From: Candidatus Saccharimonadia bacterium
GTDB lineage: Bacteria > Patescibacteriota > Saccharimonadia > UBA4664
Length of the DNA: 64,000 nt
Direction: 5' to 3'
NCBI GenBank assembly: GCA_041743505.1
Contig: JBGTMQ010000017.1
Span: forward strand, 15,680 to 79,679
Numbering within the stretch: the stretch's first letter is position 1; the number at the start of each line of letters is the position of its first letter. The position numbers and the translations under genes are program-made. Shown in pieces: positions 185-52,528 of the stretch. The notes under the pieces were generated by a model. That model saw only the letters and a list, made by a program, of their open reading frames with translations, was not told the DNA's origin and ran no database searches.

Positions 185-715
185 ATGTACTCCCTAGCCA
201 GCAAACTTGCTTCTCTACCCATTGTTAGCCTCCAAACCGGCGAAGCAGTGGCGTCGGTAATACGGGCCGTAATTGATAGCTCTAATCTCGAAGTTATTGC
301 CTATCTCTGCGAAGTACCTAAGCAAGCTGAGCTGCTTACCCTTATAACCCAGGACATCCGTCAAATAACCCCTGATTGTTTTATTATCGACTCCGAAGAC
401 GAGTTAGCCGAAACCGGTGATATCGTGCGTATCCGGCATCTGTTGGAACAAAACTACACGCCACTCGGAAAACTGGTCGTGACCGACCTCAACCGGCACC
501 TCGGCCGCATCGACGACTACACCATCAACTTAGATAGCCACCGGATTCAAAAGCTATATGTCCGGCCATCACTGCTACGGTTCTGGCTAGGGGCCACTGT
601 CATCGTCGACCGCACTCAAATTATCGATGTCACGCCCCGTCAAATCGTTGTACGCGACACAGCCGTAACAGCCTCGCTAATGCCCACTGAACCAACCCCC
701 GAAACAAACCCTTGA
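185..715 (+). CDS. PRC-barrel-like domain protein (hypothetical); six-frame ORF begins at 32 but the likely start is Met at 185
   Basis: ORF 32..715; N-terminal 50 aa are Arg/Gly-rich and atypical; the body has two PRC-barrel-like repeats (weak recall of the family). Confidence 0.4.
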   Translation: MYSLASKLASLPIVSLQTGEAVASVIRAVIDSSNLEVIAYLCEVPKQAELLTLITQDIRQITPDCFIIDSEDELAETGDIVRIRHLLEQNYTPLGKLVVTDLNRHLGRIDDYTINLDSHRIQKLYVRPSLLRFWLGATVIVDRTQIIDVTPRQIVVRDTAVTASLMPTEPTPETNP

Positions 716-824
716 ACCTTCTTACTACTTACGCTAAGCTGTAGCTAATAAGAGGGCGAAAAGTGGTAGTAATACTCCTGTTCGCGGTAGCATTCGTTGT
801 AGCATATCGTCTCGTTACCGCTAA

Positions 825-1436
825 CTAATTATCAAGGCGCCCCAGCGCCTTTTTAATTTGGTCATAAGTAAAACCCTGTCGCGACAAATATTGCATAAGC
901 CTAGTATTGTCTTGGTACTGCGATAACTTACGCCGACGGTTAATGATATCCTCTAGCATCTGCTCTTGAGCTTCCTCACCTAGTTCATCCAGTGCATCAG
1001 TCACCGTTTGCCGGTCTAGTCCTTTTTGGAACAACTCCTGCTCCAGCACGTAACGGCTACGAGGACGTGTGGCCTGACGGCTAGCTATCCAGCTGGCCGC
1101 AAACGCCGCATCATCCACCAAACCATGCTCGGTCAAACGGGCTATGACCGGCTCAATGATCTCCGCCCGATAACCCTTGTTAGTCAAATGGTTCACCACC
1201 TCCCGCCGGCTCCGCGGGCGGTGCCCCAAAAACCTCAAAGCCAGATTGTAAGCACTGCTCGCAGACGACTGTCCCTGCCAACCATTCACTTCATCGGGCG
1301 TTAGCTCCCGGCCAATCCGCAACTCGCTGCCCGATAATTCCAGATCGGACAGCGAGAATGCGTATACGTTATCGAGATAGACCGAGTAGCTACCAGGAGT
1401 CCGTTTCTGCTGCCGGATGTCGGTAATAACCGCCAC
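825..1436 (-). CDS. recX: recombination regulator RecX
   Basis: 203-aa protein with RecX-like three-helical-repeat composition; immediately downstream of recA on the same strand (conserved recA-recX synteny). Confidence 0.75.
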   Translation of the reverse strand: MAVITDIRQQKRTPGSYSVYLDNVYAFSLSDLELSGSELRIGRELTPDEVNGWQGQSSASSAYNLALRFLGHRPRSRREVVNHLTNKGYRAEIIEPVIARLTEHGLVDDAAFAASWIASRQATRPRSRYVLEQELFQKGLDRQTVTDALDELGEEAQEQMLEDIINRRRKLSQYQDNTRLMQYLSRQGFTYDQIKKALGRLDN

Positions 1437-1445
1437 GGCCCAGGC

Positions 1446-2531
<1,086 letters not shown>

Positions 2532-2574
2532 CCCGTTACGCTATTACTACAAGATAGTAACCGAACAGAAACCG

Positions 2575-2594
2575 TACTGTCAACTCCCCGGTAA
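2575..2594 (-). promoter_or_regulatory. recA promoter -35 region (cggggagTTGACAgtacgg on the minus strand), 17-nt spacer to a TTACTA -10 that overlaps a TTACTA-N5-TAGTAA palindrome
   Basis: TTGACA hexamer about 45 nt upstream of the recA start; the same 37-nt segment recurs at 4846-4882. Confidence 0.45.
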
Positions 2595-2648
2595 TTATCC
2601 CCTAGATACATAACACTTACCCTTACTCCCAACTGCTATAATTGGGCC

Positions 2649-2807
2649 ATGAGTGACATAGCCAAAAAGCCGGTTAAACCGGCTCAAGAAAAGCGCCCGC
2701 TAGGCTGGTCTGACCGCCCAGAGCGGGACAAGCTACCCCAAGACCGGGAGGATGCGAGGGAGTCTTTTGACGCGCTGTTGGATAAGGTGAGCAAACCCAA
2801 GAAATAA
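2649..2807 (+). CDS. candidate small ORF (52 aa, MSDIAKKPVKPAQEKRPLGWSDRPERDKLPQDREDARESFDALLDKVSKPKK), divergent from recA
   Basis: Clean ATG-to-TAA frame in the recA upstream gap; below the 60-aa cutoff of the ORF track; no RBS or homology support. Confidence 0.2.
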   Translation: MSDIAKKPVKPAQEKRPLGWSDRPERDKLPQDREDARESFDALLDKVSKPKK

Positions 2808-3016
2808 GCATTGGCAGTCTCTTGACCCGATTGCTAAAAGCGGCTATGCTCCAGGTAAGTCGTCGTGCCGGTTTGTCCCAGCACACGGCCCACGGTCAAC
2901 TAGCCGTGAGTAAAATCAAAGCCTTTAGGTAAGTTTGGGCGGGCTGGCGCTGCCAGTCGTTAAAAACTAGACCCGCACGGCGGTACGCGCCACCTTCCGA
3001 CAGTCACACTGGCGGG

Positions 3017-3205
3017 GTGGAGGGTAAAGGTTTGGGATACATTATTTTCCGACCCAACAGCAACCCCCAGCCGCGACGTAAAACTCCGGCCGAGAAAGAG
3101 CTGGAGGAGCAGCAACAAGCTGCTACGCTCGCCTATGTCCGGGAGCATTTTCAAAAGCTCCAACTACAAAAGGCTGACAACCATAAAGGTCGCAGCCCAG
3201 AGTAG
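3017..3205 (+). CDS. hypothetical small basic protein (62 aa)
   Basis: ORF followed 10 nt later by a clean intrinsic terminator hairpin. Confidence 0.3.
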   Translation: MEGKGLGYIIFRPNSNPQPRRKTPAEKELEEQQQAATLAYVREHFQKLQLQKADNHKGRSPE

Positions 3206-3215
3206 TGTCCCAGCA

Positions 3216-3244
3216 AACAGCACCTTCGGGTGCTGTTCCTTGTT
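3216..3244 (+). terminator. rho-independent terminator (AACAGCACC-TTCG-GGTGCTGTT then CCTTGTT)
   Basis: Perfect 9-bp stem with tetraloop followed by a T-rich run. Confidence 0.5.
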
Positions 3245-3296
3245 AAAAGACTATACCGCGTGCGCTTATTCGTCAATAGCACAAGCGTTATGCCTC

Positions 3297-3608
3297 TTAT
3301 GCTACTCTTTTTAGCAACAGTTCGAACATCGGCTCGTGACTCTTACGGTTCGAGTACCGCCAAGCGTATTCAGCCGCGTACAGGGGTAAATATCGCTTAT
3401 CGACATGCCGGTACACGGTAGTAATTCCATTCTTCAAAATAGACCAAAAGCCCTCTATGGTGTTGGTGTGGATCTCGCCCATAGTATAACGCTCAGAGTG
3501 GTTAATAGCGCTGTGTGGATAGCCGAGACGCGGCAAGACCTTATAAGCCAGCAATTGATCACTCATAACCCTAGAACCGCGTGAGACGTTAGCCTGGACG
3601 TGCGGCAT
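3297..3608 (-). pseudogene. IS1595-family (ISXO2-like DDE) transposase, C-terminal fragment only
   Basis: HTNTIEGFWSILKNGI...VYRHV...YLPLYAAEYAWRYSNR matches the conserved C-terminal block of IS1595 transposases; no N-terminal zinc-ribbon or DDE-N half is present upstream. Confidence 0.6.
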
Positions 3609-3749
3609 CAGCTCTGGCGCCGTAACGTGATCGACAACCGCTGTTCGAACTCGCCCAACCAGCGCTACGGCAGCATAGAAAATAAGCTGACCCTTACCGA
3701 AAACTAGAGCTGCAATCAGCCAATATGGTGACTTGAGCGGTGAGTGCGA

Positions 3750-4133
3750 TTAAGAATGTTTTTTTGAATGAAACCATTTCTTGCCAAGCACAACCCCGTA
3801 GGCGGTGAGTAAACTTATTAGAACAATGTCAAAAAATCGAATGTGGTTCCAATAATCAGTTGGCATAAAGCTTGCAAGAGTCCAGTTGGTAAATCGGATA
3901 TGCGCCATAATCAGGTAGTAAGAAGCGAGGCTGAATGCGATCCAAGCTAGCGGCGTGAACCACACTCTAATGTAGCCACGTTTGTAGACCTGTCGAGTGA
4001 TGTATAGCCCGGCCACTATCGCAGTGGCGTCGTGAAGTATGTACTGTCCGTGAACAAATACTAAGGCAGCTATCAGCCAATACGCTGTCTGGGCTATAAG
4101 CGCGATCAAGAATGTTTTTTTAAATGTGGTCAT
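3750..4133 (-). CDS. small polytopic membrane protein (about 4 TM), candidate immunity or partner of the upstream secreted protein
   Basis: 127-aa hydrophobic ORF directly downstream of and co-directional with the secreted Cys-rich protein; its N-terminal 20 codons are duplicated as a truncated copy at 3720-3777. Confidence 0.5.
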   Translation of the reverse strand: MTTFKKTFLIALIAQTAYWLIAALVFVHGQYILHDATAIVAGLYITRQVYKRGYIRVWFTPLAWIAFSLASYYLIMAHIRFTNWTLASFMPTDYWNHIRFFDIVLISLLTAYGVVLGKKWFHSKKHS

Positions 4134-4202
4134 AATAATTGCTTTATTTGGCGACGGAGGTTGGTAAGCCCTCCGCCGCCATATGTTACTACCGCGTTGC
4201 CG

Positions 4203-4658
4203 CTACCAGCCGCCACCACCGTTGCCGGGTGCCCCGCACTTCCAGTTATAGGCATTCCACATGGGTGCGTAGTAGTTACTTACGTATGCTTTGGTGCCCG
4301 GATGATAGGTAGAGCAATAGAGTTGCGTGTCAACGCCGCCGATGATCTGCCATTCACTACCCCATTCGGCAGAGGCCGTGAGAGACTTATCGGTGCTGGC
4401 AGAAAAGCTGCCACCTGTACTGTCGCTTATTTTACGCTTGCAGTACCAAGTATAAGGGTTGGCCGGATCTTGATACCAAGCATCCATTGTTTGGTGGAGG
4501 CCGCCGTACTTGAGATGACAGGCACTTGCCATGTTAATCCCGTAGCCGCCATCAGCGGCGCTGGCCGCTGTCGCATTCACAGCCATGGTGCCGAAACTCA
4601 CCCCAACGAGGGTGGCGAGAACGGCGAGAAACCTTACAAACCGCTTGGTGACAGACAT
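4203..4658 (-). CDS. secreted cysteine-rich small protein (signal peptide, 4 Cys, C-terminal GGGGW), bacteriocin-like or toxin-like candidate
   Basis: N-terminal signal peptide ending in ASA-A; mature part about 115 aa, Trp/Tyr/Cys-rich; no recognisable family. Confidence 0.5.
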   Translation of the reverse strand: MSVTKRFVRFLAVLATLVGVSFGTMAVNATAASAADGGYGINMASACHLKYGGLHQTMDAWYQDPANPYTWYCKRKISDSTGGSFSASTDKSLTASAEWGSEWQIIGGVDTQLYCSTYHPGTKAYVSNYYAPMWNAYNWKCGAPGNGGGGW

Positions 4659-4848
4659 GCCACAACCTTTCGGGTCTGGGATTGGATGTAAAGAAGGACG
4701 CTCAATTGTCTTGGGGGACGGTCGAATTGAGTTAGCCAGAAGTTACCATATGACTGACAAGGATGCAAATTTGCGGCTCTGGTTTGGCATTTATGGCCAG
4801 GCGGTTTGCGTGCCCATCGAAAACCTACCCGTTAAGAACCGATCAAAA

Positions 4849-4867
4849 GCCGTACTGTCAACTCCCC
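4849..4867 (-). promoter_or_regulatory. copy of the recA -35/spacer promoter segment (cggggagTTGACAgtacgg), driving the 4658..3750 operon
   Basis: 37-nt near-identity to the recA upstream segment at 2558-2594; about 190 nt upstream of the secreted-protein start. Confidence 0.45.
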
Positions 4868-6705
4868 GTAACTGCCTGCCTCAATGCCGCCCGAATATCC
4901 CCCTGACCCAACACATGAAGCGACGTCATAGCCCGCGTCAACGCCACATACAACTGATCCTGATTAAGCCGCCGCCGCTCCGCCGCCACAGTCACAGATT
5001 CCTCTGGCACCGCAAACGTGTCAGCCTCAATGCCTACCAAGCAAACCGTATCAAACTCCACTCCCTGAGCCTCACGGATTGTCAGGCAATGAACTCCCGG
5101 CCGACCCGCCAACCCCGTCGCATAGGCCTCTATCGTATCCACGTCCTTGGCCAGCACCCCGATAGTACCCCCAGCCGGCACCTCCAATTGCTTAATGTAC
5201 GAAATCGCCGCCACCTCATCAGTCGCCAATTCCACCACCTCCGGGCCTTCGCTCAAACCCTCCGGCAACTCCACGTCATACCCCAACTCGCGAATATACG
5301 CCAAGATCTGCTTCGTATTGCGATAAACCTTATGTAACTTAATGTGCCGCTCAGCCGCAATCGTCTCACCAATCTCCCGCCAATCACGAATCGTCCCAAA
5401 TTGCGTCTGCTGAGCCAAATCACCAATATAGAGCATGGCTTCAGTCCGGCCGCTTACAGCACCTCGCATCAGCCGCAACTGCTCCGGCAGGTAATTCTGA
5501 AATTCATCCACCAGCACCAACGAATAGTTAAGCGGCTGCATGGTCACCTTGGTCCGAACTTTGCCGCCCGGCAAGAAAGTGTAGCTCTCCACACCGGCCA
5601 TCAACCGTCCCTCAGTCCGCTGCTTAGCCACCAGCAACATTGTCAAATCATGGCGGTCAAGCGCCCCTTCCCCCAGCTCGCTTGCCAGCATCTTCAACTG
5701 CCCATGCGCCAGATAGGCCGCATAAGCCGCCTTCAAAAACTGATCCGGCCGCTTGGCGTCAAACCGCGCCTCCAGTGGCTCATGAAGTGCCTTCAGTTTG
5801 GCCGCTTCATAGGCGTCCTGCTCAACTTCATTAGCCCCGGGTCGGACCCGAAAAAAGTAGGCCCTCAGCCCCAGCCGCTCCAACGCCCATTCCGCAAAGG
5901 TAGTTATCCGCACGTCATGAATACCCAGTTCCGGTAGCAAGGTAGAGAAATACTCCTGCGTCCGCCCGTCCTGAACAAATACCATAATCGCCTCAGCCGG
6001 ATAAAGGTCGGTTGTCTCTGGCGCTTGGCGAAGATAGGCAATGCGGTGCAGCGCCAACGTGGTCTTACCGGAGCCGGCCGGCCCGGAAATCACCAACGGC
6101 CCCCGGTGATCCGCCCGGATAACCTGGTCCTGGGCCTTTTCCATCTGGGCCACAATCTCCGGCAGCACAAAGCCTTCTTTGTGAGTCGAAAAGTGGTCTT
6201 GATAAATCAGTTCCCGGGCATCATCCTCCGACTCGCTAGTCATAAACCGGATCTCGCCGCTGGTAATCATAAACTGGTCCCGCCGCTGCAACCGCCCCGA
6301 CACCTGCCGCCCATCCGGCGCAGCGTAGCTAACCTCTCCCGGCTCCTCAAACCGCACCCGCGCCACCGGCGCCGCCCACGAATAAATACCGTGCTCACTA
6401 GCCGGAAATTTGGCAAAATAATAAGCCTGTGCCGGCCGGCCGGGCAGCTCCAAATCACACCGGGCAAAGTATGGCGATGGCGCTAAGGCCTGAAGCTGCT
6501 GCTTCATCATCGTCGTATTTGTGCCCACCGCCAAAGCCCGCAGCCGGTCCTCATACTCGGTATCCCCCTCAATTTCCTTGAAGGCCTCCCAATCCCGCTC
6601 CAAAGTCGTCATCACCTCACCCAGCCGCACGTCCAACTGCCGCCGGGTCTCCGTCAAGTGCTCTTTAGCTTCACCTAGAAGCTGCTCCTTGTGGGTTCGG
6701 TCCAT
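4858..6705 (-). CDS. UvrD/HelD-like superfamily-1 DNA helicase
   Basis: Walker A GPAGSGKTT, VDEFQN (motif II), UvrD_C-like GVEFDTVCLV; N-terminal accessory domain of about 190 aa as in HelD. Confidence 0.7.
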   Translation of the reverse strand: MDRTHKEQLLGEAKEHLTETRRQLDVRLGEVMTTLERDWEAFKEIEGDTEYEDRLRALAVGTNTTMMKQQLQALAPSPYFARCDLELPGRPAQAYYFAKFPASEHGIYSWAAPVARVRFEEPGEVSYAAPDGRQVSGRLQRRDQFMITSGEIRFMTSESEDDARELIYQDHFSTHKEGFVLPEIVAQMEKAQDQVIRADHRGPLVISGPAGSGKTTLALHRIAYLRQAPETTDLYPAEAIMVFVQDGRTQEYFSTLLPELGIHDVRITTFAEWALERLGLRAYFFRVRPGANEVEQDAYEAAKLKALHEPLEARFDAKRPDQFLKAAYAAYLAHGQLKMLASELGEGALDRHDLTMLLVAKQRTEGRLMAGVESYTFLPGGKVRTKVTMQPLNYSLVLVDEFQNYLPEQLRLMRGAVSGRTEAMLYIGDLAQQTQFGTIRDWREIGETIAAERHIKLHKVYRNTKQILAYIRELGYDVELPEGLSEGPEVVELATDEVAAISYIKQLEVPAGGTIGVLAKDVDTIEAYATGLAGRPGVHCLTIREAQGVEFDTVCLVGIEADTFAVPEESVTVAAERRRLNQDQLYVALTRAMTSLHVLGQGDIRAALRQAVTGS

Positions 6706-6716
6706 TGAGCTCCCTG

Positions 6717-7220
6717 CTACCGATAGTTCTGGAAATCCAACGGAAAATCCAAATCTTTACCCTTCAACAATGTCATAACTCCTTGCAAATCATCCTTGCT
6801 AGCCGAGGTCACCCGCACACTGTCACCCTGAATCTGCGTTTTTACCTTGGGATAACTATCCCGAATCGCCTTGGTCAGCTGCTTGGCCTTATCCTGATCC
6901 AATCCTTTCTTAAACGGCACCGTCCAGCGCATTTCCTTGCCACCCTCAACCGGACTCCCGCTCGTATCCAACGTCTTGAGCGACACCCCACGCTTCACCA
7001 GCTTGCTCTGCAACACGTCTAAAATAGCATCGAGCTGGTTTTGGCTCTCCCCCGCGATCAACACGCCGGTCTTGCCGTCCACAAACTCCAATTTGGCCGC
7101 CGTGCCCTTAAAATCGTACCGCGTACTAATCTCGCGCTGCGCCTGGTCAACCGCATTGGTCATCTCAGCCACATCGTAGTCACTAACGACATCAAATGAA
7201 AAATCTTTCGCCATTATCAT
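6717..7220 (-). CDS. yajQ: YajQ-family nucleotide-binding protein (UPF0234/DUF520)
   Basis: About 165 aa; FDVVSDYD...EMTNAVDQAQREISTRYDFKG signature typical of YajQ. Confidence 0.75.
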   Translation of the reverse strand: MIMAKDFSFDVVSDYDVAEMTNAVDQAQREISTRYDFKGTAAKLEFVDGKTGVLIAGESQNQLDAILDVLQSKLVKRGVSLKTLDTSGSPVEGGKEMRWTVPFKKGLDQDKAKQLTKAIRDSYPKVKTQIQGDSVRVTSASKDDLQGVMTLLKGKDLDFPLDFQNYR

Positions 7221-7362
7221 GCCTCCTTGTCGGTTCTTAGTTTATACGAGTTTCGTACTTTGATGTAGCCCAAGAAAGAACGAGCACCGCAGGGAGGTCG
7301 CGTAGCGACAAAGCGGAGCGCAAGTTATGACGCCGGGATATGCGAAGCACGAAACTCGTAGT

Positions 7363-8421
7363 TTACGGAATAACGGTGTCCTTGGCAAAAGCCTGATTGC
7401 GCCGGATCTCACCTTCTCCACCCAGCGCATCAATTTTCTTGCCCGCCACCACTGCATTAGTAATAGTCAAGCTTGTCGCACCTGCATTACCAGTCGTGAT
7501 ACTAACGTCCTTCGTAGCCATGAATAACCTGCTCCACCCGGCTACCGTTGTACCACGCCAAACTTCCTTACCATCAGCCACAACCACCACCGACGTAGTC
7601 TCCTTGACCTTAACAGCCATGGCAATGCCATCGAATGGCGCCGGAGGCACTGCCGCTGCAGCCGGGTCAACCTTGGGCAAATGCGCCAGAATGTTACGCG
7701 TCACCGCCGAAGTCTTGCCCAGCTTACTCCGCGACACCACATGCACCGCATTCACGCCGTCTTGCAATGCCACCTTCTCGCTAAAACCCCCGTTCGTATC
7801 CGTCAGCACCGGCGAATCATTGATAGTTACATCAGATCCCGGCGTGGTCTTACCGCTCAAATCAATAACACCACCCGTAATAGTCGTGTCACCCGAGGGG
7901 TTATTAACGCTCAACATTGGCGCCGCCGCCAGAGCCGAAAATTGCCATAACAAGTAGGCCAAAACCGCCACAATAACCGCCACAACAGTAATAGCCGCCA
8001 CAATCGGACCGGTAAATACCAGCCGTTTAGGCCGCTCCAGCTGTGGCTGCTTAGTTGGACCGGTCTCCAACCCGCCGCGCTCCGCCACATACATCGCCGC
8101 AACCAATGCCCCATCCAGGCCCAAATGGTTAGCGTAATGCTGCACAAACCCGCGCGTATAAATATCATGCGGCAAGCTCGAGTAATCACCCGATTCCAAA
8201 GCCGTCAAAAACTTGCCACGAATCTTCGTATCCAGCTCCACCTGGGCCAAACTCAGCCGCAAGGCCTGCCGCCGGCTCTTTAACTGCTGGCCAACGGGAC
8301 TATTAGGCTTAATCTTAGCGTCTTCGGACATAATCTCATTGTACAGGTTTGAGTACACAGATCGAACCCGTCGCCCATCTGGCGCTACCAAGACAAAAAA
8401 ATGCTTACCGTTTTTTGCCAA
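7363..8421 (-). CDS. RodZ-like membrane protein (XRE-type HTH, TM, C-terminal DUF4115-like)
   Basis: HTH segment QQLKSRRQALRLSLAQVELDTKIRGKFLTALE, single TM, Ser/Thr/Gly-rich C-terminal domain; the real start may be the internal MSEDAK. Confidence 0.55.
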   Translation of the reverse strand: MAKNGKHFFVLVAPDGRRVRSVYSNLYNEIMSEDAKIKPNSPVGQQLKSRRQALRLSLAQVELDTKIRGKFLTALESGDYSSLPHDIYTRGFVQHYANHLGLDGALVAAMYVAERGGLETGPTKQPQLERPKRLVFTGPIVAAITVVAVIVAVLAYLLWQFSALAAAPMLSVNNPSGDTTITGGVIDLSGKTTPGSDVTINDSPVLTDTNGGFSEKVALQDGVNAVHVVSRSKLGKTSAVTRNILAHLPKVDPAAAAVPPAPFDGIAMAVKVKETTSVVVVADGKEVWRGTTVAGWSRLFMATKDVSITTGNAGATSLTITNAVVAGKKIDALGGEGEIRRNQAFAKDTVIP

Positions 8422-32658: not shown

Positions 32659-33597
32659 TTATCTGTCTTTACTAGCCGTCGCCACCCGGTAAACCAACTG
32701 CTCCACTGCCGCTTCAGGCTTCAACCGGCCTGATTTTATGTCAAACTCACACTCAGCCGCCGCCCGGTAGGCGTTCACGAGCGTAGCCTGGCTATGACGG
32801 CGATGGCTGCTCAGCATCTTGCCCGCCACAAACGGAGACATGCCGGCCGCTTTAGCCAGCTCTGATTGTGACAACCCAGGAGCAGTTTTGGCCAATAACA
32901 AGTTACGCAATTGCCACTGAACCATGGTCAAAATGTATAGCTCGTTCTCCCGGTTAGCCAGCAGGTTACGGTAACCAACCAGGGCCGCGTCAGTACGGCC
33001 TGCCGTCATTGCCTCCACCATATCAAACACCGACTGGTCGATACTCGGCGCCACCAACTTGCGCACCGTTTCCACCGTAACCACCGGATCATAATTGACC
33101 AGCTTGCCGATCTCGCCGGACAGCCGCCATTGGTCGCCCCCGGTAAGGTCCAGCAACTCTTGCAGCATCCGGCGGTCAGCCTGGCCACCAATACGCTCGG
33201 TCTCAGCCTTAGCCCAAGCCAATAGCTGTGGTACCGGCAGCGGATCAAATTTAACCACTTTATCGGCCCGGCTCAACGCCTTAAACAAAGCCGTCCGCTG
33301 GTCAATGCTCTGTTCCACGAACACCGCCACAGTGCTACTCGGAACCGCCGAAAGCATGGCCGCCAATTTCTCACTTATGGCTTTATTGAGAGATAAATCC
33401 TCCACAATTACCAAACGGCTAGTCGCCATAAACGGCGCTGCCTGCAACGTCGCCACTAGCTCACGCGGTTTCACATTAGAGCCATTAACCCGCTCCAGCC
33501 CGATATCCGAACCCGTCTTAGCCTTATAGGCCTCCATCATTTGGCTCAGCTGATGGCGCAAAGCATAGGTATTTGGCCCGTAAAAGAAAAACGTCAT
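32659..33597 (-). CDS. holA: DNA polymerase III subunit delta
   Basis: 312-aa; N-terminal FFYGPNTYALRH...VIVEDLS pattern and overall length typical of HolA. Confidence 0.7.
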   Translation of the reverse strand: MTFFFYGPNTYALRHQLSQMMEAYKAKTGSDIGLERVNGSNVKPRELVATLQAAPFMATSRLVIVEDLSLNKAISEKLAAMLSAVPSSTVAVFVEQSIDQRTALFKALSRADKVVKFDPLPVPQLLAWAKAETERIGGQADRRMLQELLDLTGGDQWRLSGEIGKLVNYDPVVTVETVRKLVAPSIDQSVFDMVEAMTAGRTDAALVGYRNLLANRENELYILTMVQWQLRNLLLAKTAPGLSQSELAKAAGMSPFVAGKMLSSHRRHSQATLVNAYRAAAECEFDIKSGRLKPEAAVEQLVYRVATASKDR

Positions 33598-34475
33598 ACC
33601 AAATCAAGCTTCTGACACATAGGGCAAACGTGCGTACCCCGGCCGGCCACGCGAATCTTTTCAATCAACGTTCCGCAAACTGGACATGGCTGCCCCTCCC
33701 GGCGAAATACCCGGGCATTCTCTAAATAATCACCCTTACCACCCAGCGAGTTAACATAATGGGCAAAACTCGTGCCGCCATGCTCAATGCCCAGCCCCAT
33801 AATCTCCCGGACAGCCGCATGCAGCCGCTTATTCTCAGCAGCCGTCAGCGAACCAGCCAACCGCCGCGGATGCAGTTTGGCCAGGTGCAATGATTCATCA
33901 GCATAAATATTGCCAATCCCCGCCACCACCGCCTGGTCCAAAATCACCGGCTTAACCGGTGCTCGCTTATGCCGCTCCAATTGAGACTGTAAATACGTCA
34001 CGCTAAACGCATCCGACAATACTTCCGGCCCCAACCGCGACACCAACGTATCAAGTTCAACCTCAGCCGTCGGCACCAGTTTAATCCAACCGAACTTACG
34101 CTGGTCATTAAAATACAGCACGTCACCCGAAGTCAGCCGGAAAATCACCCGTGTCGACACGTCCGGCAGCTCGCTGGCCATGCTCTCGGTCGGATGTCCC
34201 CCGGCCATACGCACGCCATCGGCTTTCACCAGCACCATCTGGCCGGTCATCTTGAGGTGAAACAGCAGCGAGTAGCCATTATCCAGATCAATTATCAAGA
34301 CCTTAGCCCGCCGGCTTACCCGGATAATCCGCGCCCCAGGCATAATCTGCTCCCGCAAGACCTGCGGCATCTGAAAGCTCCTCTCCCACAATACCTCAAT
34401 ATCCGACACTCTCTGGTCCACCACCTCCCGCTCCAAACCGCGCCTGATTGTCTCAACCTCCGGCCCTTCCGGCAT
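33594..34475 (-). CDS. mutM: formamidopyrimidine-DNA glycosylase (Fpg/MutM)
   Basis: N-terminal MPEGPEVE (catalytic Pro2/Glu3), H2TH region, C-terminal zinc finger CPVCG...CPMCQ; the ORF track begins two codons earlier at MGM. Confidence 0.85.
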   Translation of the reverse strand: MPEGPEVETIRRGLEREVVDQRVSDIEVLWERSFQMPQVLREQIMPGARIIRVSRRAKVLIIDLDNGYSLLFHLKMTGQMVLVKADGVRMAGGHPTESMASELPDVSTRVIFRLTSGDVLYFNDQRKFGWIKLVPTAEVELDTLVSRLGPEVLSDAFSVTYLQSQLERHKRAPVKPVILDQAVVAGIGNIYADESLHLAKLHPRRLAGSLTAAENKRLHAAVREIMGLGIEHGGTSFAHYVNSLGGKGDYLENARVFRREGQPCPVCGTLIEKIRVAGRGTHVCPMCQKLDLV

Positions 34476-34533
34476 CCCCAAAACCTCGTTACGCTAATTA
34501 GTATAGGGCATCAACAAATTATCAACCCCAACA

Positions 34534-34562: not shown

Positions 34563-34610
34563 AATAATGATATCCGGTTTTCGGACATCGCACCCGACAA
34601 ATCACCCGAT

Positions 34611-34928
34611 ATGATCCTGGAGGTCATGGTGAACGCTCAAACCGATGTATCGGGCAGCTCTACAACCAAGAGCCAGCCCAAACCAGTGTACAAAGCCAGT
34701 ATCTGCTCCTGGGCCGTCGTATTCTGGATGGTGCTGTTATTGGTCAGCTCCCTCACAATCGACCAATATCTCGCCCTCTACGTGTGGCTGGCAACCGGTA
34801 TTGTATTCCTCTACACAACCGGCCTGTGTGTGATAATCATCAGACACATCGACTTCCGCTCGCAGTACCCAGTCACCAGCTCACCTGCGACAGAGCCGCC
34901 GGCCTCAACAACCACCACGGAAAGCTAA
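34611..34928 (+). CDS. small membrane protein, cassette 1 (MILEVMVNAQT..., 3 TM)
   Basis: In frame with ORF-track entry 34194..34928, whose N-terminal part is antisense to fpg; the N-terminus MILE(V/S)(M/I)V(N/T)A is shared with the cassette-2 ORF. Confidence 0.45.
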   Translation: MILEVMVNAQTDVSGSSTTKSQPKPVYKASICSWAVVFWMVLLLVSSLTIDQYLALYVWLATGIVFLYTTGLCVIIIRHIDFRSQYPVTSSPATEPPASTTTTES

Positions 34929-35008
34929 TCTCAGCCTCACAGGCAAGCGGCCCAAGAAACCTGACCGGGACATCCCGCATCAGTCCGCTTGCCTCCGGGT
35001 GATTTGTC

Positions 35009-35066
35009 GGTACCTTAGTCAAATGTATATTTTGGCCTGACGAGTCCTAAAGGACGAAAAGGTACC
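35009..35066 (+). ncRNA. type-III hammerhead self-cleaving ribozyme, copy 1 (predicted cleavage after A35017)
   Basis: GGUACCUUA|GUCAAA-UGUAUAU-UUUGGC-CUGACGA-GUCC-UAAA-GGAC-GAAA-AGGUACC. Conserved core C3U4G5A6N7G8A9 and G12A13A14 present; stems I (6 bp), II (4 bp, UAAA loop) and III (8 bp) all form; U16.1-A15.1 pair and H17=A. Confidence 0.8.
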
Positions 35067-35083
35067 ATTCACAGCCACAGAAG

Positions 35084-35112
35084 TTGACAAATCAAACAGC
35101 TTGTGCTAAAAT
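35084..35112 (+). promoter_or_regulatory. cassette-2 promoter TTGACA-17-TAAAAT
   Basis: Consensus -35, 17-nt spacer, good -10; lies 18 nt downstream of hammerhead copy 1. Confidence 0.55.
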
Positions 35113-35161
35113 AATAAAGATATCCGATCCTCGGACATCGCAACCCGACAAATCACCCGAT

Positions 35162-35482
35162 ATGATCCTGGAGAGCATCGTGACTGCCAAGACATCAAAA
35201 TCAGGCAACGATCAGCCGGCAAACAACCATGAAGGTAGGTTCTTCGTTGCAATGGGAATCGGCTTGTGGATTATGAGCGTCTTTCTGTACATAAGAACCG
35301 GCATGGACGAACTCAGCCTTGAGGCGCTCGTGAAAACCACCACCGGCTGCGTAGTTCTCGCATCAGGAGGGATTATCCTGGTCGTAATCGGCGCCGCTCT
35401 TGGGATACTGAGCCGCATCGACTCTGCGGTGGCAAAGTTGACCACAACAGACACCGCTCCCGCGCCCGACAGCAAAAGCTGA
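35162..35482 (+). CDS. small membrane protein, cassette 2 (MILESIVTAKT..., 3 TM)
   Basis: ORF-track entry 35084..35482 trimmed to the ATG homologous to cassette 1; the upstream in-frame part covers the promoter. Confidence 0.45.
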   Translation: MILESIVTAKTSKSGNDQPANNHEGRFFVAMGIGLWIMSVFLYIRTGMDELSLEALVKTTTGCVVLASGGIILVVIGAALGILSRIDSAVAKLTTTDTAPAPDSKS

Positions 35483-35514
35483 CACCGGACACACCCCGAC
35501 CAGGAGGTCATAGG

Positions 35515-35805
35515 ATGACTGCCCCAGCCACCACTCCCGGCAACAAGCAGCTCAATCAATGCGTATGGACGCTAAGCGTCGGAATAGGCCTGTTGGTCTT
35601 TAACACCATTCTCAGCGCAGCTGTCGCATTCCAGGTCGAAGATTGGCAGATGGCCATAAAGTTCCTGGGCATCCAGTTTAGCCTGCTTTCCCTCGGAGTT
35701 CTTCTGGTCACAATCGCCGCGGTTCTCTACTTCGCCGGTAAACAAGCCCCACTGGCGGCAGACACCGGGACGGTTCCTACACCAGCAGAGACCACCGGCG
35801 CCTAA
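35515..35805 (+). CDS. small membrane protein, second gene of cassette 2 (96 aa, 2-3 TM)
   Basis: AGGAGG RBS 7 nt before the ATG; hydrophobic. Confidence 0.45.
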   Translation: MTAPATTPGNKQLNQCVWTLSVGIGLLVFNTILSAAVAFQVEDWQMAIKFLGIQFSLLSLGVLLVTIAAVLYFAGKQAPLAADTGTVPTPAETTGA

Positions 35806-35886
35806 CCCTCCAACCACACAGGCAAGCGGCCCAAGAAACCTGACCGGGACATCCCGCATCAGTCCGCTTGCCTCCGGGTGATTTGT

Positions 35887-35944
35887 CGGTACCTTAGTCA
35901 AATGTATATTTTGGCCTGATGAGTCCTAAAGGACGAAAAGGTAC
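35887..35944 (+). ncRNA. type-III hammerhead self-cleaving ribozyme, copy 2 (predicted cleavage after A35895)
   Basis: Identical to copy 1 except U7 (canonical CUGAUGA); lies within a 130-nt block matching 34937-35066. Confidence 0.8.
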
Positions 35945-36059
35945 CCCTTCTAGCATATGACCAATATTAGTCCGCTCAGCAAGCAGTTTGCTCGCCATAC
36001 TGCCCAATGTTCTCGTCATGCCAAGACGACTACTGTATAGAAGTTAAGGAGAGGATCTT

Positions 36060-36278
36060 ATGGCAAGTGACAGTGAGAGTATTAGCCCGGCCGAAGCCCA
36101 AAAAGCGCTTGCAGGCATTAGTTTTCCTGCCGAAAAGCAGGACTTAGTGGAGCGCGCCAAGGAAAATGACGCTGATGAGCGCGTCATGGACTTCCTGGAG
36201 CGCATTCCAGATCGGGAATATGAAGGTGTAACCGATGTATCAAAAGAGATCGGTCGTCAAGACCGGGAATCGTCTTAA
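36060..36278 (+). CDS. DUF2795-family small protein
   Basis: ISPAEAQKALAGISFPAEKQDLVERAKENDADERVMDFLERIPDREYEGVTDV fits the DUF2795 pattern (Y/F-P-A-x-K-x-D-L...LP-D-R-x-Y); AAGGAGAGG RBS. Confidence 0.55.
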   Translation: MASDSESISPAEAQKALAGISFPAEKQDLVERAKENDADERVMDFLERIPDREYEGVTDVSKEIGRQDRESS

Positions 36279-36295
36279 ACAAAAAGTGCAGGTAC

Positions 36296-36336
36296 AAACA
36301 GGGCGGCCCTCCTAGGTCGCCCTGTTTTTTTGATAC
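36296..36336 (+). terminator. intrinsic terminator (AAACAGGGCGGCCCTCCTAGGTCGCCCTGTTT then TTTTTGAT)
   Basis: Long GC stem plus T-run right after the DUF2795 gene. Confidence 0.6.
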
Positions 36337-36382
36337 AATAAAAACAAATAAGCATTAGGACTTAGGAGCTAGAAGCACCACC

Positions 36383-36730
36383 ATGGCCAAATCCTCCATC
36401 CGCAAAATTCCGTTTAGCCGTTTCGTGGTTGTGGCAAGTGCCGGCCTCGTGGGCTTTTTAGCTTTCTGGCAAGCTTTTTTCTCATTTACAGGCTACCGGC
36501 CGTGCGCCCTTCAAAATCCCGACTACGTCATACCGCCTAACCCCAACGCCGCCATAACCGAACTGGGTATATGCATCATAGCCATGGTTGTCCTGTTTTG
36601 GGGTGCCAAACGGTTACGCACCAACTTCCCCGAAGGTTTCTTCGGCTACAGCATGGTCGTCGTAAACCTTCTCATCGGTGAAGGCTTACTGGCCTTTGTC
36701 TTCTTGCGGTTATCAACCTGCGCCGGCTAG
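36383..36730 (+). CDS. hypothetical membrane protein (115 aa, 3 TM)
   Basis: Hydrophobic ORF; convergent with polA. Confidence 0.4.
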   Translation: MAKSSIRKIPFSRFVVVASAGLVGFLAFWQAFFSFTGYRPCALQNPDYVIPPNPNAAITELGICIIAMVVLFWGAKRLRTNFPEGFFGYSMVVVNLLIGEGLLAFVFLRLSTCAG

Positions 36731-36732
36731 CT

Positions 36733-39567
36733 CTACAACTCGCCCCAATGCCGGCCAATCGCCGTATCCACCGCCAACGGCACACCCAAATCAATTATCC
36801 CACTCATCGTCTCTTGCATCAGCCGGGCCACTTCCTCGCCTTTTTCGACCGGTGACTCCACGATCAGCTCATCATGAATCTGTAACAATAATTTCGAATC
36901 CGCATCGAGCTTAGCAGCCAGCTCTATCATGGCCAGTTTATAAATATCCGCCGCCGTACCCTGAATTGGCACGTTTACAGCCATCCGCTCAGCCCCGGAC
37001 CTTATCTGAAAATTATTCGACCGGATTTCCGGACAAGCCCGCCGCCGCCCAAATAACGTCGCTATATATTGGTTGTCATAAGCAAACTTCTTGGTCACCT
37101 CAATATAATCTTTAAGCTTGGGACGCATCTCAAAATAACGCCCGATAAACTCAGCTGCCGCCTTGCCATCCATGCCCGTAGCCACGCTCAAACCATGTGC
37201 ACTCATGCCATACAACACACCAAAGTTAATGGTTTTAGCCGCATACCGCTGCTCCTTGGTCACTGCATCCAGCGGCACACTAAACAGCTCGGCCGCCGTC
37301 TGCTGATGCAGGTCAATACCGGTCCTAAACGTCTCCAGCATGGCCTCGTCCCCAGACAGCGCCGCCGCCACGCGCAGCTCAATCTGCGAATAGTCCGCAC
37401 TCACCAGCACCCGTGACCTAGGCGCCACGAACGCCGTCCGAATCTCCCGGCCCAGCTCAGTCCGCACCGGTATGTTCATCAAATTCGGGTTCGATGAACT
37501 CAGACGCCCCGTCTGCGCAATCACCTGCGAAAAACTCGTATGCACGCGCCCATCTACACCAACCTCTTCAGGCAAGGCCGTTACATATGTATTCATCAGT
37601 TTATCCAGCTCGCGGTATTCCATAATGAGCTCGATAATCGGATGCAAATCCCGCATCCGCTCCAACTCACCCACCGCCGTCGAGTAGCCGGTTTTGCCTT
37701 TCTTCACGCCCACGGTACTCAAACCAAGCCGCCCATACAAAATCTGACCCAATTGTGCCGGGGAAGCCAGGTTAAACTCCTCACCGGCCAGATCATACAC
37801 CTTGCCCTTCAGCTCGCCAATCCGCGCACTCAGCCGTCCACCCAGCCGCTCGAGATAACCTTTATCAAGCTCAATTCCAGCGATCTCCATCTCACCAAGA
37901 ACCGAAATAATCGGCCACTCAACTTCACTTGCCAGTCGCTCCATGTTCCAGCCGTACTCGTTTACCTGGCCTGCATGTTGCTTCAGCTCATCCCGCAGCT
38001 TCACATACAGCCGCCAGGCCATATCCGCATCCTCAGCCGCATACGTCGTAGCGTGCTCAATCAGCGTCTTGTCAAACGTCACCTGCGTCTTCTTATCCGC
38101 TCCGATCAGTTCCGAGATTGGAATCATCTCCACATCCAGCTCGTTATATGCCAGGTCCGCCAAAGACTGCGCCCGGCCGATCGAGTTCAACAAAAACGCC
38201 GCAATCATCGTGTCAAACACGATCCCCTGCATCCGCACCCCATGCCGCCGCATCACTTCATAATCAAACTTTATATTATGCCCCGTCTTACCAATCTTCG
38301 AGTTCTCGAACAGCGGCTTCAGTTTCCGGATCACCTCGTCCCGCTTCAGCTGCGTACCCTCGGTGTGACCCACCGGAATGTAATAAGCTTCTGCTTCTTT
38401 AAATGACACGCTCACACCCACCAGGTTCACGCTCAACGTATCCAGCGAATCCGTCTCCGTATCAAACGCAAACACCTCCTGCTGCTCCAGTTGTCCGATC
38501 AACACCTCCAGCTTACCCATATCCGTAATAGCGTCATATTTCACGCTAGCCAGATGCGTCCGCTCGCGCTTAACTGTCGGCGCACCCGAATCATCAAACA
38601 GTGTTGGTATCGCCGGCTCCACCCCAGCCGCAACCCCGCCGTTCACGCGCATATCCGGCGGCAATTTAGCTAGTAAACTCCGAAAATCCAGCCGGTGAAA
38701 CAGCTTCGTTACATGCTCGCGGTCAAAATGCCCCACCCGCGCCGGTTCCAGCTCCAGCTTAATCGGTGCGTCACACACAATCACGCTCAGCTTGCGGCTT
38801 AAATAAGCCATATCCTTATTCACACGCAACTTGTCACCGGTACTCCCGGCAATCTCATCAATGTGCTCATAAATCCCATCCAGCGTCTTATATACCGCCA
38901 ATAACTTCCGCGCCCCCACGTCCCCAATACCTGCTACACCCGGGATATTGTCGCTCTTATCGCCAATCAGCGCCTTATAATCAATAAATTGCTGCGGCGT
39001 CAGCCCGTATTTTTCCTGCATTTTGGCCAGATCATACCGCGTCGGCTCCAAGCCACGCGGATTAAACATATCTACCACCGTTTGCTTATCCACCAGTTGC
39101 AACTGGTCCTTGTCGCCGGTCGCGATCACAATATCCAGGTCACCTCGCTCCTCCGCCTGCCGCGCCAACGTCCCAATAATATCGTCCGCCTCGTAGTTCT
39201 CCAACTCAATCCACGGGAGGTTCAACGCCTCCACCAGCTCCCGCGTTGCCGGAATCTGCGCATACAAATCATCCGGCTGTTTTTTTCGCGTTGCCTTATA
39301 TTCCGGATACATTTCATTCCGAAACGTCTTCGACGACTTGTCCCACGTTACAATCACGTACTCCGGATTCAGGCCCTGAATCACCTTCAACATAATGTTT
39401 GTAAAACCCAGCACCGCATTCGTCGGCAAGCCTTCTCTATTCGATAAAGGCGGAATAGCATGATAACCGCGGTGAAATACCGCTGAACCGTCCACCAACA
39501 CCAACAATGGCTTTTTACTCATATACCCATTGTAAGCCCATCCGACGCGAGGGCCCAAATCAACCAT
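36733..39567 (-). CDS. polA: DNA polymerase I (5'-3' exonuclease, 3'-5' exonuclease-like and polymerase domains)
   Basis: 944-aa; polymerase motifs DYSQIELR (A) and RRAAKTINFGVLYG (B) and QIHDELIVE (C); N-terminal 5'-nuclease LVLVDGSAVFHRGYHA. Confidence 0.95.
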   Translation of the reverse strand: MVDLGPRVGWAYNGYMSKKPLLVLVDGSAVFHRGYHAIPPLSNREGLPTNAVLGFTNIMLKVIQGLNPEYVIVTWDKSSKTFRNEMYPEYKATRKKQPDDLYAQIPATRELVEALNLPWIELENYEADDIIGTLARQAEERGDLDIVIATGDKDQLQLVDKQTVVDMFNPRGLEPTRYDLAKMQEKYGLTPQQFIDYKALIGDKSDNIPGVAGIGDVGARKLLAVYKTLDGIYEHIDEIAGSTGDKLRVNKDMAYLSRKLSVIVCDAPIKLELEPARVGHFDREHVTKLFHRLDFRSLLAKLPPDMRVNGGVAAGVEPAIPTLFDDSGAPTVKRERTHLASVKYDAITDMGKLEVLIGQLEQQEVFAFDTETDSLDTLSVNLVGVSVSFKEAEAYYIPVGHTEGTQLKRDEVIRKLKPLFENSKIGKTGHNIKFDYEVMRRHGVRMQGIVFDTMIAAFLLNSIGRAQSLADLAYNELDVEMIPISELIGADKKTQVTFDKTLIEHATTYAAEDADMAWRLYVKLRDELKQHAGQVNEYGWNMERLASEVEWPIISVLGEMEIAGIELDKGYLERLGGRLSARIGELKGKVYDLAGEEFNLASPAQLGQILYGRLGLSTVGVKKGKTGYSTAVGELERMRDLHPIIELIMEYRELDKLMNTYVTALPEEVGVDGRVHTSFSQVIAQTGRLSSSNPNLMNIPVRTELGREIRTAFVAPRSRVLVSADYSQIELRVAAALSGDEAMLETFRTGIDLHQQTAAELFSVPLDAVTKEQRYAAKTINFGVLYGMSAHGLSVATGMDGKAAAEFIGRYFEMRPKLKDYIEVTKKFAYDNQYIATLFGRRRACPEIRSNNFQIRSGAERMAVNVPIQGTAADIYKLAMIELAAKLDADSKLLLQIHDELIVESPVEKGEEVARLMQETMSGIIDLGVPLAVDTAIGRHWGEL

Positions 39568-39659
39568 AACAAAAAACCCGTGGAGAAGCAGTTGCTAGCA
39601 ACCCCTCCACGGATTAGACACCGGCAAACTAGGTTGCTTGTGTCAGCCTATGCGTTGCG

Positions 39660-40061
39660 TCAGCGAACACCTATTCGCCTCGAACACGTTGGCCACGCTT
39701 TCCAGCCTTGGCCTTTCTTGCCATCGTGCCCGTTAAGTATCCGTTGAGCAACGACAATCTGATTAGAGCGGGAAGTCTGGTTAGGGTAGGCCGCAAACTG
39801 GCGTCCCCCATAGTAATTCCAGGTCGACTTACTGATCTGGAGGCCACCATAATAGCCATTACCGGAATTAATCTTCCAGTTCCCGCTTGACTCACATCTA
39901 GCCAGGCGATCCCAGACAGAACTATTCCCGCCCGCCTGCGCTGTGTCATGCTTCGGCGCCGCCACTGCGGCAGCCGGAGATAGTGCCATAAGCGCAACCA
40001 CCAAAAGCGCGCTCACAACCACACCGACACCTGCGCGTAGAATTCGAAGCACGAGGTTCAC
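39660..40061 (-). CDS. resuscitation-promoting-factor-like secreted transglycosylase (Rpf domain)
   Basis: Signal peptide then WDRLARCESSGNWKINSGNGYYGGLQISKSTWNYYGG...GWKAWPTC, the Rpf/Transglycosylase-like signature. Confidence 0.7.
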   Translation of the reverse strand: MNLVLRILRAGVGVVVSALLVVALMALSPAAAVAAPKHDTAQAGGNSSVWDRLARCESSGNWKINSGNGYYGGLQISKSTWNYYGGRQFAAYPNQTSRSNQIVVAQRILNGHDGKKGQGWKAWPTCSRRIGVR

Positions 40062-40475
40062 TCCCTCGCTCGCGACCGCTCACTTTAGAGCAGCCTGGAA
40101 ATCAAACCAAACCGGTTTGGTACCAGACGCATCTCCCTTCGACTCAAGGTACCCCGCAAGAATAACAATTATCATAAGCTTGTCAATAACGTACATAAGC
40201 AACTGACAATTCTATATCTGTTATTACAAATTTACAAAGATTAATATTCCGACTCGTTGGTATATTTACGGCCACTACCGCCGTAGCGCTGAGCCATTTC
40301 ACGGTATTGGTCGTAGTCCGCCATAACCTCGGGATTTAAAGCCCAGAGAAAATCACCCAATGAGACAGCCCAGCTTGCTCCATCAAAAGCGCGGCATTAC
40401 TCCGGTATTCAAAATCACGAGCAGCCCGGCCTGTTTCTGGTTTAGTACTCATATTCTCAAGCATACCAGAAGCGG

Positions 40476-52440: not shown

Positions 52441-52528
52441 TGGCGGAGGGAGAGGGATTCGAACCCTCGAGGGCTTGCACCCAACGCGCTTTCCAAGCGC
52501 GCGCCATAGGCCACTAGGCGACCCCTCC
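52441..52528 (-). tRNA. tRNA-Ser (anticodon GGA), encoded CCA
   Basis: Reverse complement GGAGGGGUCGCCUAGUGG...CUUGGAAAG...GGUUCGAAUCCCUCUCCCUCCGCCA: 7-bp acceptor stem, D-loop, anticodon loop with GGA, long variable arm, T-loop GTTCGAATC. Confidence 0.85.

Follow-up and report, generated by a model that had tools for sequence, protein, structure and literature searches.

The role of hammerhead ribozymes in bacteria has been an open question since their finding in 2010–2011. Hammerheads in bacterial genomes, type III included, have been described previously (PMC3088659, PMC6155905, PMC6765202), and tandem copies around small, unconserved open reading frames (ORFs) were reported by Perreault et al. 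2011 (PMC3088659) and de la Pena et al. 2017 (PMC6155905). Processing of mRNA, polycistrons or phage transcripts by bacterial hammerheads, which would divide long RNAs into messages of gene length, has been proposed (PMC3088659, PMC6155905, PMC6765202), and reviews call these elements functional orphans (PMC6765202). The present analysis concerns two tandem type III hammerheads in a stretch of 64,000 nucleotides (nt) from Candidatus Saccharimonadia bacterium (contig JBGTMQ010000017.1, positions 15,680 to 79,679 of the forward strand), which is called the window below and is numbered from its first letter. Each hammerhead closes a small cassette with its own promoter between the genes polA and fpg, and both probably serve to cut read-through RNA into separate messages. 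The initial annotation could place this layout in no described system; the tandem arrays and the processing role published in the papers cited above stand against that statement. The ribozyme type and the tandem layout are already known, and the pairing of the leader with a 3' "anti-box", which the initial annotation missed, is absent from the literature searched. The same literature holds no general hairpin-then-ribozyme layout and no link of hammerheads to Patescibacteria, the candidate phyla radiation or Saccharibacteria.

The motif stands twice on the + strand of the window and reads directly as GGUACCUU-A/GUCAAA-UGUAUAU-UUUGGC-CUGA(C/U)GA-GUCC-UAAA-GGAC-GAAA-AGGUACC, the slash marking the predicted cleavage site. 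Hammerhead 1 (35009–35066, N7 = C; sequence, Rfam, fold and profile) would be cleaved after A35017, between 35017 and 35018, and hammerhead 2 (35888–35945, N7 = U; sequence, Rfam and profile) after A35896, between 35896 and 35897. The spacing from hammerhead to hammerhead is 879 nt, and repeats of ~135 nt bracket the unit. Copy 1 and its cleavage site had been placed correctly before, and copy 2 had been set one base too low (35887–35944, cleavage at 35895/35896, spacing 878 nt). The description of both as canonical type III hammerheads with all core positions was confirmed by reading of the sequence, by the Rfam model RF00008 (Hammerhead_3) and by the fold. The core (C3 U4 G5 A6 N7 G8 A9 and G12 A13 A14) is complete in both copies, without a mismatch to the core of the Rfam model, and H17 is A, i.e., not G. 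The minimum-energy structure of both copies consists of three stems, of which I and II are closed by loops and III is open, as in type III. The UG of loop 1 and the AAA of loop 2, candidates for the tertiary loop contact on which fast cleavage depends, are present in both copies and at least 90% conserved over 116 sequences.

RF00008 aligns end to end with both copies (model positions 1–54) at 33.7 and 35.8 bits. The corresponding E-values are 6.4e-5 and 1.6e-5 in a scan of 2 kilobases (kb), and 2e-3 and 5e-4 when the whole window is compared with all 4227 Rfam families. A profile built from 114 relatives, with the window copies left out, finds these two hammerheads and nothing else in the 64 kb, with E = 5e-10 and 1.7e-10. 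No third copy was found in the 64 kb on either strand with a generic hammerhead pattern, and the ribozymes occupy the + strand only. Apart from a tRNA, Rfam revealed no other ribozyme class or known RNA family in the window, nor any in the leaders of eight related loci.

Relatives were sought in one genome per bacterial or archaeal species with a pattern comprising the core and stem II (18 fixed bases), stems I and III being left free. At least 120 loci matched, compared with ~17 chance matches expected, a figure estimated from the pattern and the size of the collection. By record title, Patescibacteria account for 82 of the 120 listed loci, 51 of these being Saccharibacteria or Saccharimonadia; one family member is found in a Nanosynbacter genome (L087). 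Among the 137 matches listed, 125 parse as type III hammerheads with varied stem sequences. The same hammerhead pattern is abundant in viral contigs too, with at least as many occurrences as are listed in the viral scan. The window's own variant of stem I and loop 1 had no match in a metagenome scan.

Covariation was examined in an alignment of 116 sequences. Pairing amounts to 99.4% in stem I, where each of the six pairs varies on both sides. For the five inner pairs of stem III it is 81–100%; four of these covary, and the A15.1-U16.1 pair never changes (116/116). Covariation scores 0.711 in this alignment, whereas shuffles reach 0.168 and slid partners ~0.10. In the same loci a generic hammerhead search picked up 18 neighbouring copies whose stem II differs (GCUC/GAGC, GUCG/CGAC, GCCG/CGGC and others), against none in 444 kb of control loci; this stem hence covaries too. 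The window elements belong to a large hammerhead family, mostly unannotated by Rfam, that is frequent in phage contigs and in Patescibacteria, above all in Saccharibacteria. The two elements are almost certainly functional hammerheads, and a chance or dead motif is effectively excluded.

Two or more copies within 8 kb occur at 21 of 106 loci, and a single copy at the other 85. The densest array seen comprises eight type III hammerheads in 8 kb of a Parcubacteria record (L046, positions 1–8000, JANLIU010000041), with spacings from ~120 nt to 2.1 kb, several of them 300–440 nt, and with several different stem II sequences. Neighbouring copies usually have stem I and III sequences in common (L001, L004, L051, L064, L066, L118), whereas dispersed copies in one genome (CAZAFC01) differ in their stems (loci L071, L084, L093, L110). 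This distribution fits local duplication or gene conversion. Directly 5' of the hammerhead, viral contigs L131, L136, L157, L161, L186, L198, L209, L213, L173 and L237 carry a hairpin that is palindromic (GGUGUCUUCAAAGACACU or GAGGGUUCAAACCCUC), with a further copy of it 0.65–1.15 kb upstream, which suggests phage genomes with a regularly spaced punctuation of hairpin plus ribozyme.

By crude gene calls around the family loci, the nearest upstream gene shares the strand of the ribozyme 76 times and lies on the other one 19 times, with a median gap of 80 nt between stop codon and ribozyme. The defined transcript 3' end proposed earlier for the window cassettes fits this family-wide placement after same-strand genes. 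In 151 relatives the 60 nt upstream of the ribozyme have a mean folding z of -2.3, and z is at or below -2 in 51% of them, compared with 15% at a control position; the 60 nt downstream are unstructured. The hairpin with a 34-nt loop that the initial annotation noticed before the ribozyme is present in the window, and structure at this place is general in the family. A promoter-like site within 150 nt downstream occurs in 23%, against 9.8% of controls. CU-rich 5-mers are enriched upstream of the cleavage site, an enrichment confounded by the composition of stem III.

The upstream proteins of the family are diverse, and by a crude test between about a quarter and a third of these ORFs have a hydrophobic segment. 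The hammerheads of the window stand ~80 nt after the stop codons of small ORFs with two predicted membrane helices, as had been described; given the diversity of the upstream proteins, this link to membrane proteins is local and not general. The closest architectural relative is the Saccharimonadales locus L001, in which promoter, small membrane ORF, hairpin, hammerhead and next promoter follow each other at an unrelated genomic site and with different ribozyme stems. Positions 4003–4160 of L001 hold the third promoter of the array, then a GC-rich, structured-looking leader, and a 467-amino-acid (aa) ORF with a hydrophobic beginning follows.

Each window cassette consists of a promoter, a leader hairpin, a 15-nt box, a Shine-Dalgarno (SD) sequence with one or two ORFs, a 3' hairpin, a 15-nt anti-box and the hammerhead, all on the + strand. 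Cassette 1 starts with the promoter-like sequence P1 (34534–34562; TTGACA, 17-nt spacer, TGC-CAATAT), which is homologous to P2 of cassette 2 and aligns to it without gaps over 62 nt at 82% identity. Leader hairpin 1 (34569–34589; GAUAUCCG-loop-CGGACAUC), derived from minimum-energy folds, stands at the predicted transcript start. It is followed in the 5' leader by box 1 (34594–34608; CCGACAAAUCACCCG), 10 nt before the SD sequence, and by ORF1 (34626–34928; 100 aa, two predicted membrane helices) with GGAGG (34619–34623) 3 nt before its ATG. Hairpin 1 of the 3' untranslated region (UTR) occupies 34941–34994 (GGCAAGCGG...CCGCUUGCC) and has a stem of 9–10 base pairs (bp) with a 34-nt loop; the fold of the 137-nt block has z = -3.9. 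This hairpin lacks a U-tract, being followed by UCCGGGUGAUUUGUCGG, and is absent from the terminator-scan list, which does contain 36296–36335. Anti-box 1 (CGGGUGAUUUGUCGG) lies at 34996–35010 and is the complement of box 1.

Cassette 2 starts 18 nt after hammerhead 1 with P2 (35084–35112; TTGACA, 17 nt, TG-n-TAAAAT), which matches 11/12 consensus positions and has an extended -10. The fold and the alignment of the cassettes place leader hairpin 2 at 35119–35139, its stem being kept and three loop bases differing. Comparison of the repeats gives box 2 (35145–35159), identical to box 1, 3' UTR hairpin 2 (35820–35873), identical to hairpin 1, and anti-box 2 (35875–35889). Between them the ORF call yields ORF2 (35180–35482; 100 aa, GTG start) and then ORF3 (35515–35805; 96 aa, AGGAGG upstream, without relatives), each with two predicted membrane helices. 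The 3' frame, taken from CACAGGCAAGCGG as far as the end of the ribozyme, differs between the cassettes at N7 alone (126/127), and the 5' frame (~100 nt) is ~90% identical (82% and 93% over its two repeat families). The proteins of ORF1, ORF2 and ORF3 are just 20–22% identical to each other, in agreement with the earlier description of 3' blocks that are identical apart from N7 and upstream ORFs that have diverged. The small ORFs belong to no Pfam or PHROG family and resemble no ORF at the other hammerhead loci.

Hammerhead 2 is followed by a gene of the DUF2795 family (36060–36278; Pfam PF11387, E = 8.7e-22) and by an intrinsic terminator (36296–36335), a 13-bp stem and then a U-tract. Elsewhere on the + strand of the unit the terminator scan gives no terminator-like site that runs out into a clear stretch of U. 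The promoter scan gave no promoter-like site between hammerhead 2 and the DUF2795 gene, and this gene is therefore probably co-transcribed with the cassettes and released by the cut.

Box and anti-box are perfect complements (15/15 nt) in both cassettes, and the last two nucleotides of the anti-box are the first two of stem III. The predicted fold of the processed cassette-1 mRNA (34569–35017) is closed by this 15-bp helix, leaves a 7-nt 3' tail and has z = -5.1. In the family, 13 of the 117 loci have a perfect complement of at least 12 nt located 400–1400 nt upstream; among random control segments the share is 0.8%. Ungapped scoring that tolerates G-U pairs and mismatches gives z of at least 4 at 13 genome loci, compared with 1 when a control position is scored. 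Inspection of 14 loci places the box in the leader, ahead of the ORF start and mostly behind a TTGACA-type promoter-like sequence, with the anti-box ending 0–10 nt before stem III; the sequences of box and anti-box differ between these loci and their complementarity is kept. Inside the helices ~10 G-U pairs were counted by eye on the sense strand, compared with ~2 A-C mismatches, and imperfections that are mostly G-U favour RNA pairing over DNA-level repeats. A clamp of the ribozyme-made 3' end to the 5' leader, in which hairpin, anti-box and hammerhead form an end-clamping module, could tentatively be proposed, with rather less than even confidence.

Pairing of the anti-box with the box of the next cassette, 134 nt away, could also take place in the window; as a general arrangement it was rejected, no other locus having a downstream complement longer than 9 nt. 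Several Saccharibacteria units (L077, L016, L119, L107, L084, L007) share a 5' leader 50–150 nt after their promoters. It comprises a GUUGAG-containing hairpin, a UUGACAAGCAGA box and a long hairpin ending in CUCAUCUUGUGU, and has no Rfam match.

The following course of events could account for these features. Transcription from P1 and P2 would run to the terminator at 36296–36335, and since no terminator precedes it, each ribozyme would cut read-through RNA. Three separate messages would be set free by the cuts, namely those of ORF1, of ORF2 with ORF3, and of the DUF2795 gene. Owing to the type III topology, nearly the whole ribozyme would leave with the downstream fragment; the upstream mRNA would keep a 9-nt scar and end in GGUACCUUA with a 2',3'-cyclic phosphate. 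This new 3' end would be shielded by the stable hairpin directly upstream, the anti-box/box helix of 15 bp would close the message into a panhandle, and the 5' hairpin, the 3' hairpin and the helix together would shield both mRNA ends from exonucleases. The DUF2795 message would be released with a 5'-OH and a structured 5' end. Cleavage in vivo, read-through, end protection and translation of the small ORFs are steps that we infer from the sequence. The account as a whole, with ribozymes that divide read-through RNA into separate mRNAs and ends that are shielded by hairpin and panhandle, is regarded as moderately probable.

Several points weigh against this account. Both RF00008 scores lie below the gathering score of 48.5 bits, so that a default Rfam scan is silent on both hammerheads and E-value mode is needed to see them; at the gathering threshold the scan of the window returned no hammerhead and only the tRNA (85 nt with a long variable arm, 52444–52528 on the - strand, 50.3 bits). 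The search with this model that the initial annotation proposed as a check gives matches that hold by E-value and fall short by score. The gathering score is reached by just 2 of ~27 copies in 18 loci; as most clear relatives fail it, the cut-off reflects the seed sequences of the model and not the motif, and as the family mostly lies below the threshold, standard genome annotation would miss most of its members. Sequences entered the covariation set only with 3 or more pairs in each stem, and the search pattern prescribed stem II; the innermost pairs are therefore partly there by construction, the outer pairs not.

Stem III has 8 bp in the window copies, against a family norm of 4–6 bp, which could slow product release. 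The -10 of P1 is weak, and P1 alone fails the consensus scan. Among 5.8 billion protein clusters ORF3 matched only itself, and codon usage of the small ORFs does not separate the coding frame from antisense frames. As neither relatives nor codon usage inform on the small ORFs, the term mRNA draws on ORF length, SD sites and consistent membrane topology. The long-range helix is found in just ~10–15% of the family members and is lacking in L001. Complementarity in viral contigs was dropped as evidence for the panhandle, the scores being explained by repeated palindromic hairpins next to the ribozymes.

The selected function could alternatively act on the downstream RNA or on the polymerase, and not on the upstream mRNA. 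The released message with its 5'-OH would then be capped by the folded ribozyme body and insulated from the upstream context, or the 5'-OH would be the entry for a 5'-to-3' exonuclease that chases the polymerase and ends transcription instead of a terminator. The products of the glmS ribozyme are degraded from their 5'-OH end, which counts in favour of such a function. It is also consistent with the type III topology, which leaves the whole ribozyme body on the 3' product, with the co-directional downstream genes at 54 of 85 loci, with the lack of a terminator after either ribozyme and with a DUF2795 gene that has no promoter of its own. However, the strong promoter immediately after hammerhead 1 makes cassette 2 independent of read-through RNA, the conserved structure of the family lies upstream of the cut and not in the unstructured 60 nt downstream of it, and the leader to which the anti-box pairs is that of the upstream message. 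A downstream function is accordingly considered unlikely.

The genomic setting bears on a second alternative. The minus strand carries fpg (33594–34481) and polA (36733–39567), holA and rpsT being close by, and the stretch of ~2.25 kb with the cassettes lies between fpg and polA on the strand opposite to both. The polA-fpg distance is 2251 nt here and 530 nt in the closest Fpg relative found (62% identity). The extra DNA holds the two cassettes, the DUF2795 gene and an ORF of 115 aa with hydrophobic stretches (36383–36730, + strand), which lies between the terminator of the DUF2795 gene and the end of polA as part of the same insert. This ORF has no Pfam or PHROG family and is conserved in L121, a Logan contig of SRR28170470 that corresponds to window ~35890–40278 and comes from an independent assembly of the same organism. 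L121 stops at the duplicated ribozyme block, 170 nt before the DUF2795 gene, and the repeat is the probable cause of this break in the assembly. Exact look-ups gave no contig for ORF3 and, for the DUF2795 gene, one short contig that breaks off at the repeat. All 2-kb bins of window 1–64000 have a negative GC skew (-0.07 to -0.28), and the hammerhead cassettes lie on the C-rich + strand, opposite to fpg, holA and polA.

No Fpg relative above 62% identity was found, and the same cassette is hence not comparable in close relatives. No hammerhead occurs near fpg in 80 neighbourhoods of Fpg relatives, which together with the difference between 530 and 2251 nt indicates a lineage-specific insert among core genes. 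The cassettes could be regarded as cargo of a phage-derived or mobile element, a fragment of which has come to lie between polA and fpg without a role at the host level. The abundance of the same hammerhead type in viral contigs points in this direction, as do the ties of bacterial hammerheads to prophages in the literature (PMC3088659, PMC6155905), tRNA genes within the 8-kb stretches of several other hammerhead loci, and small ORFs without relatives. However, the adjoining ORFs (fpg, holA, DUF2795, polA) include no phage structural gene, integrase or recombinase, PHROG matches are lacking, and 3' blocks that are nearly identical behind differing ORFs imply ongoing selection or gene conversion in the host. 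A mere cargo role is thus given a low probability, slightly below that of a downstream function; it concerns origin more than mechanism and is compatible with the processing of read-through RNA into separate mRNAs.

The initial annotation likened the 879-nt RNA between the two cleavage sites (35018–35896) to viroid-like, retrozyme or obelisk-type RNAs. Such an RNA would be circularised by self-ligation or by an RtcB-type ligase and might be translatable. The window copies do have identical stems, copies in tandem often have a common stem III sequence in other genomes as well, and the predicted fold of the excised unit joins its ends in a nicked hammerhead with the box 2/anti-box 2 helix stacked alongside. 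The clamp of a tandem array would hold the 5'-OH and cyclic-phosphate ends together, and the ligated product would be a circular mRNA, encoded in DNA, from which two small membrane proteins could be translated; this extension of the model is as improbable as circularisation itself. P2 lies inside the unit, and most transcripts of cassette 2 would therefore start with a triphosphate and carry one ribozyme. The 85 loci with a single copy have their own promoter and still the upstream hairpin, sometimes the panhandle. Recent duplication is a simpler explanation of the shared stems, since the identity extends over the whole 127-nt block. The ribozymes stand on one strand only, in chromosomal DNA between polA and fpg with promoters of its own, and circles were looked for at comparable bacterial tandem arrays and none was detected (PMC3088659). 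The likeness to viroid-like RNAs claimed earlier is not sustained by these observations, and circularisation is considered very unlikely.

Least probable of all is a role of box and anti-box as DNA inverted repeats, either recombinase inversion sites of an ORF switch or the ends of a small mobile cassette. The perfect 15-bp repeats do flank segments of 387 and 715 bp with complete ORFs and the promoter outside, and the UUGACAAGCAGA-type box does recur around unrelated ORFs in several genomes, but the anti-box always lies 0–10 nt from the ribozyme and the box before the ORF start, mostly just after a promoter-like sequence, the helix imperfections are mostly sense-strand G-U, no recombinase is adjacent, and the sequence conserved between the cassettes reaches beyond the repeats on both sides.

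Processing of read-through RNA by the hammerheads is thus the preferred reading, and the locus is an unusually clean test case, with promoters, leader, short ORFs, hairpin, ribozyme and a single terminator further on. Together with its relatives it makes the function of bacterial hammerheads experimentally approachable. Some Saccharibacteria grow in co-culture, and with the Nanosynbacter family member (L087) the mapping of RNA ends is feasible. If the panhandle protects both ends, it would be a ribozyme-based alternative to terminator hairpins for fixing the ends and the stability of mRNAs in bacteria with very small genomes. If the clamp module does act in single units, terminator-independent formation of 3' ends would be widespread in Patescibacteria.

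The window hammerheads share the core, the topology and the GUCC/GGAC stem II with the RF00008 hammerheads of viroids, satellite RNAs and plant genomes. They differ from them in loop 2, which has 4 nt instead of ~8 nt, and in a loop 1 with a UGUGUA-like motif. Unlike the hammerheads of viroids and satellite RNAs, the window element is DNA-encoded and of one polarity, and hence no part of a rolling-circle replicon. As in the retrozymes of plants and animals and in viroid-like circular RNAs, direct repeats that bear hammerheads bracket a unit of ~0.9 kb, and excision would give 5'-OH and cyclic-phosphate ends held in the predicted nicked ribozyme fold. Unlike retrozymes, which are non-coding and have no promoter of their own, the window unit holds a sigma-70-type promoter and two ORFs led by SD sequences, and its repeats measure ~135 bp. 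A primer-binding site, a polypurine tract or a reverse transcriptase, as in retrozymes, was not noticed here, no search having been aimed at them. The difference from viroid-like RNAs, which are RNA-only replicons with ribozymes in both polarities, lies in ribozymes on one strand and in a chromosomal unit between polA and fpg.

Pairing of the two ends of a message has a precedent in icaR of Staphylococcus aureus, in which pairing between the 5' and 3' UTRs covers the SD sequence, represses translation and makes a site for RNase III (PMC5502269). In the window, likewise, the 3' UTR of a transcript holds a stretch complementary to its own 5' UTR. Unlike icaR, the box (34594–34608) lies 10 nt upstream of the SD sequence and does not cover it, and the pairing is tied to a 3' end made by a ribozyme. 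Separation of neighbouring messages is also achieved by other means. RNase III processes the early transcripts of phage T7 between cistrons. Engineered ribozyme insulators and 3' UTR ribozymes have also been described (Felletti et al., cited in PMC6765202 and PMC5502269). The window elements resemble both in a cut between cistrons, a structured 3' end upstream of it and the separate fates of neighbouring messages. They differ in that the predicted cut is self-catalysed, needs no host enzyme and belongs to a natural element. Unlike the promoterless cassettes of integrons (attC), each window cassette has its own promoter.

The nearest counterparts are the tandem hammerheads of bacterial genomes. 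With these the window locus shares the canonical core and copies that flank genes or short blocks of small unconserved proteins, and the family is likewise present in phage sequence. It differs from the arrays described in its site, which is a neighbourhood of core genes without prophage genes among the adjoining ORFs, in the promoter that belongs to each cassette, and in the helix of leader and anti-box that abuts the ribozyme.

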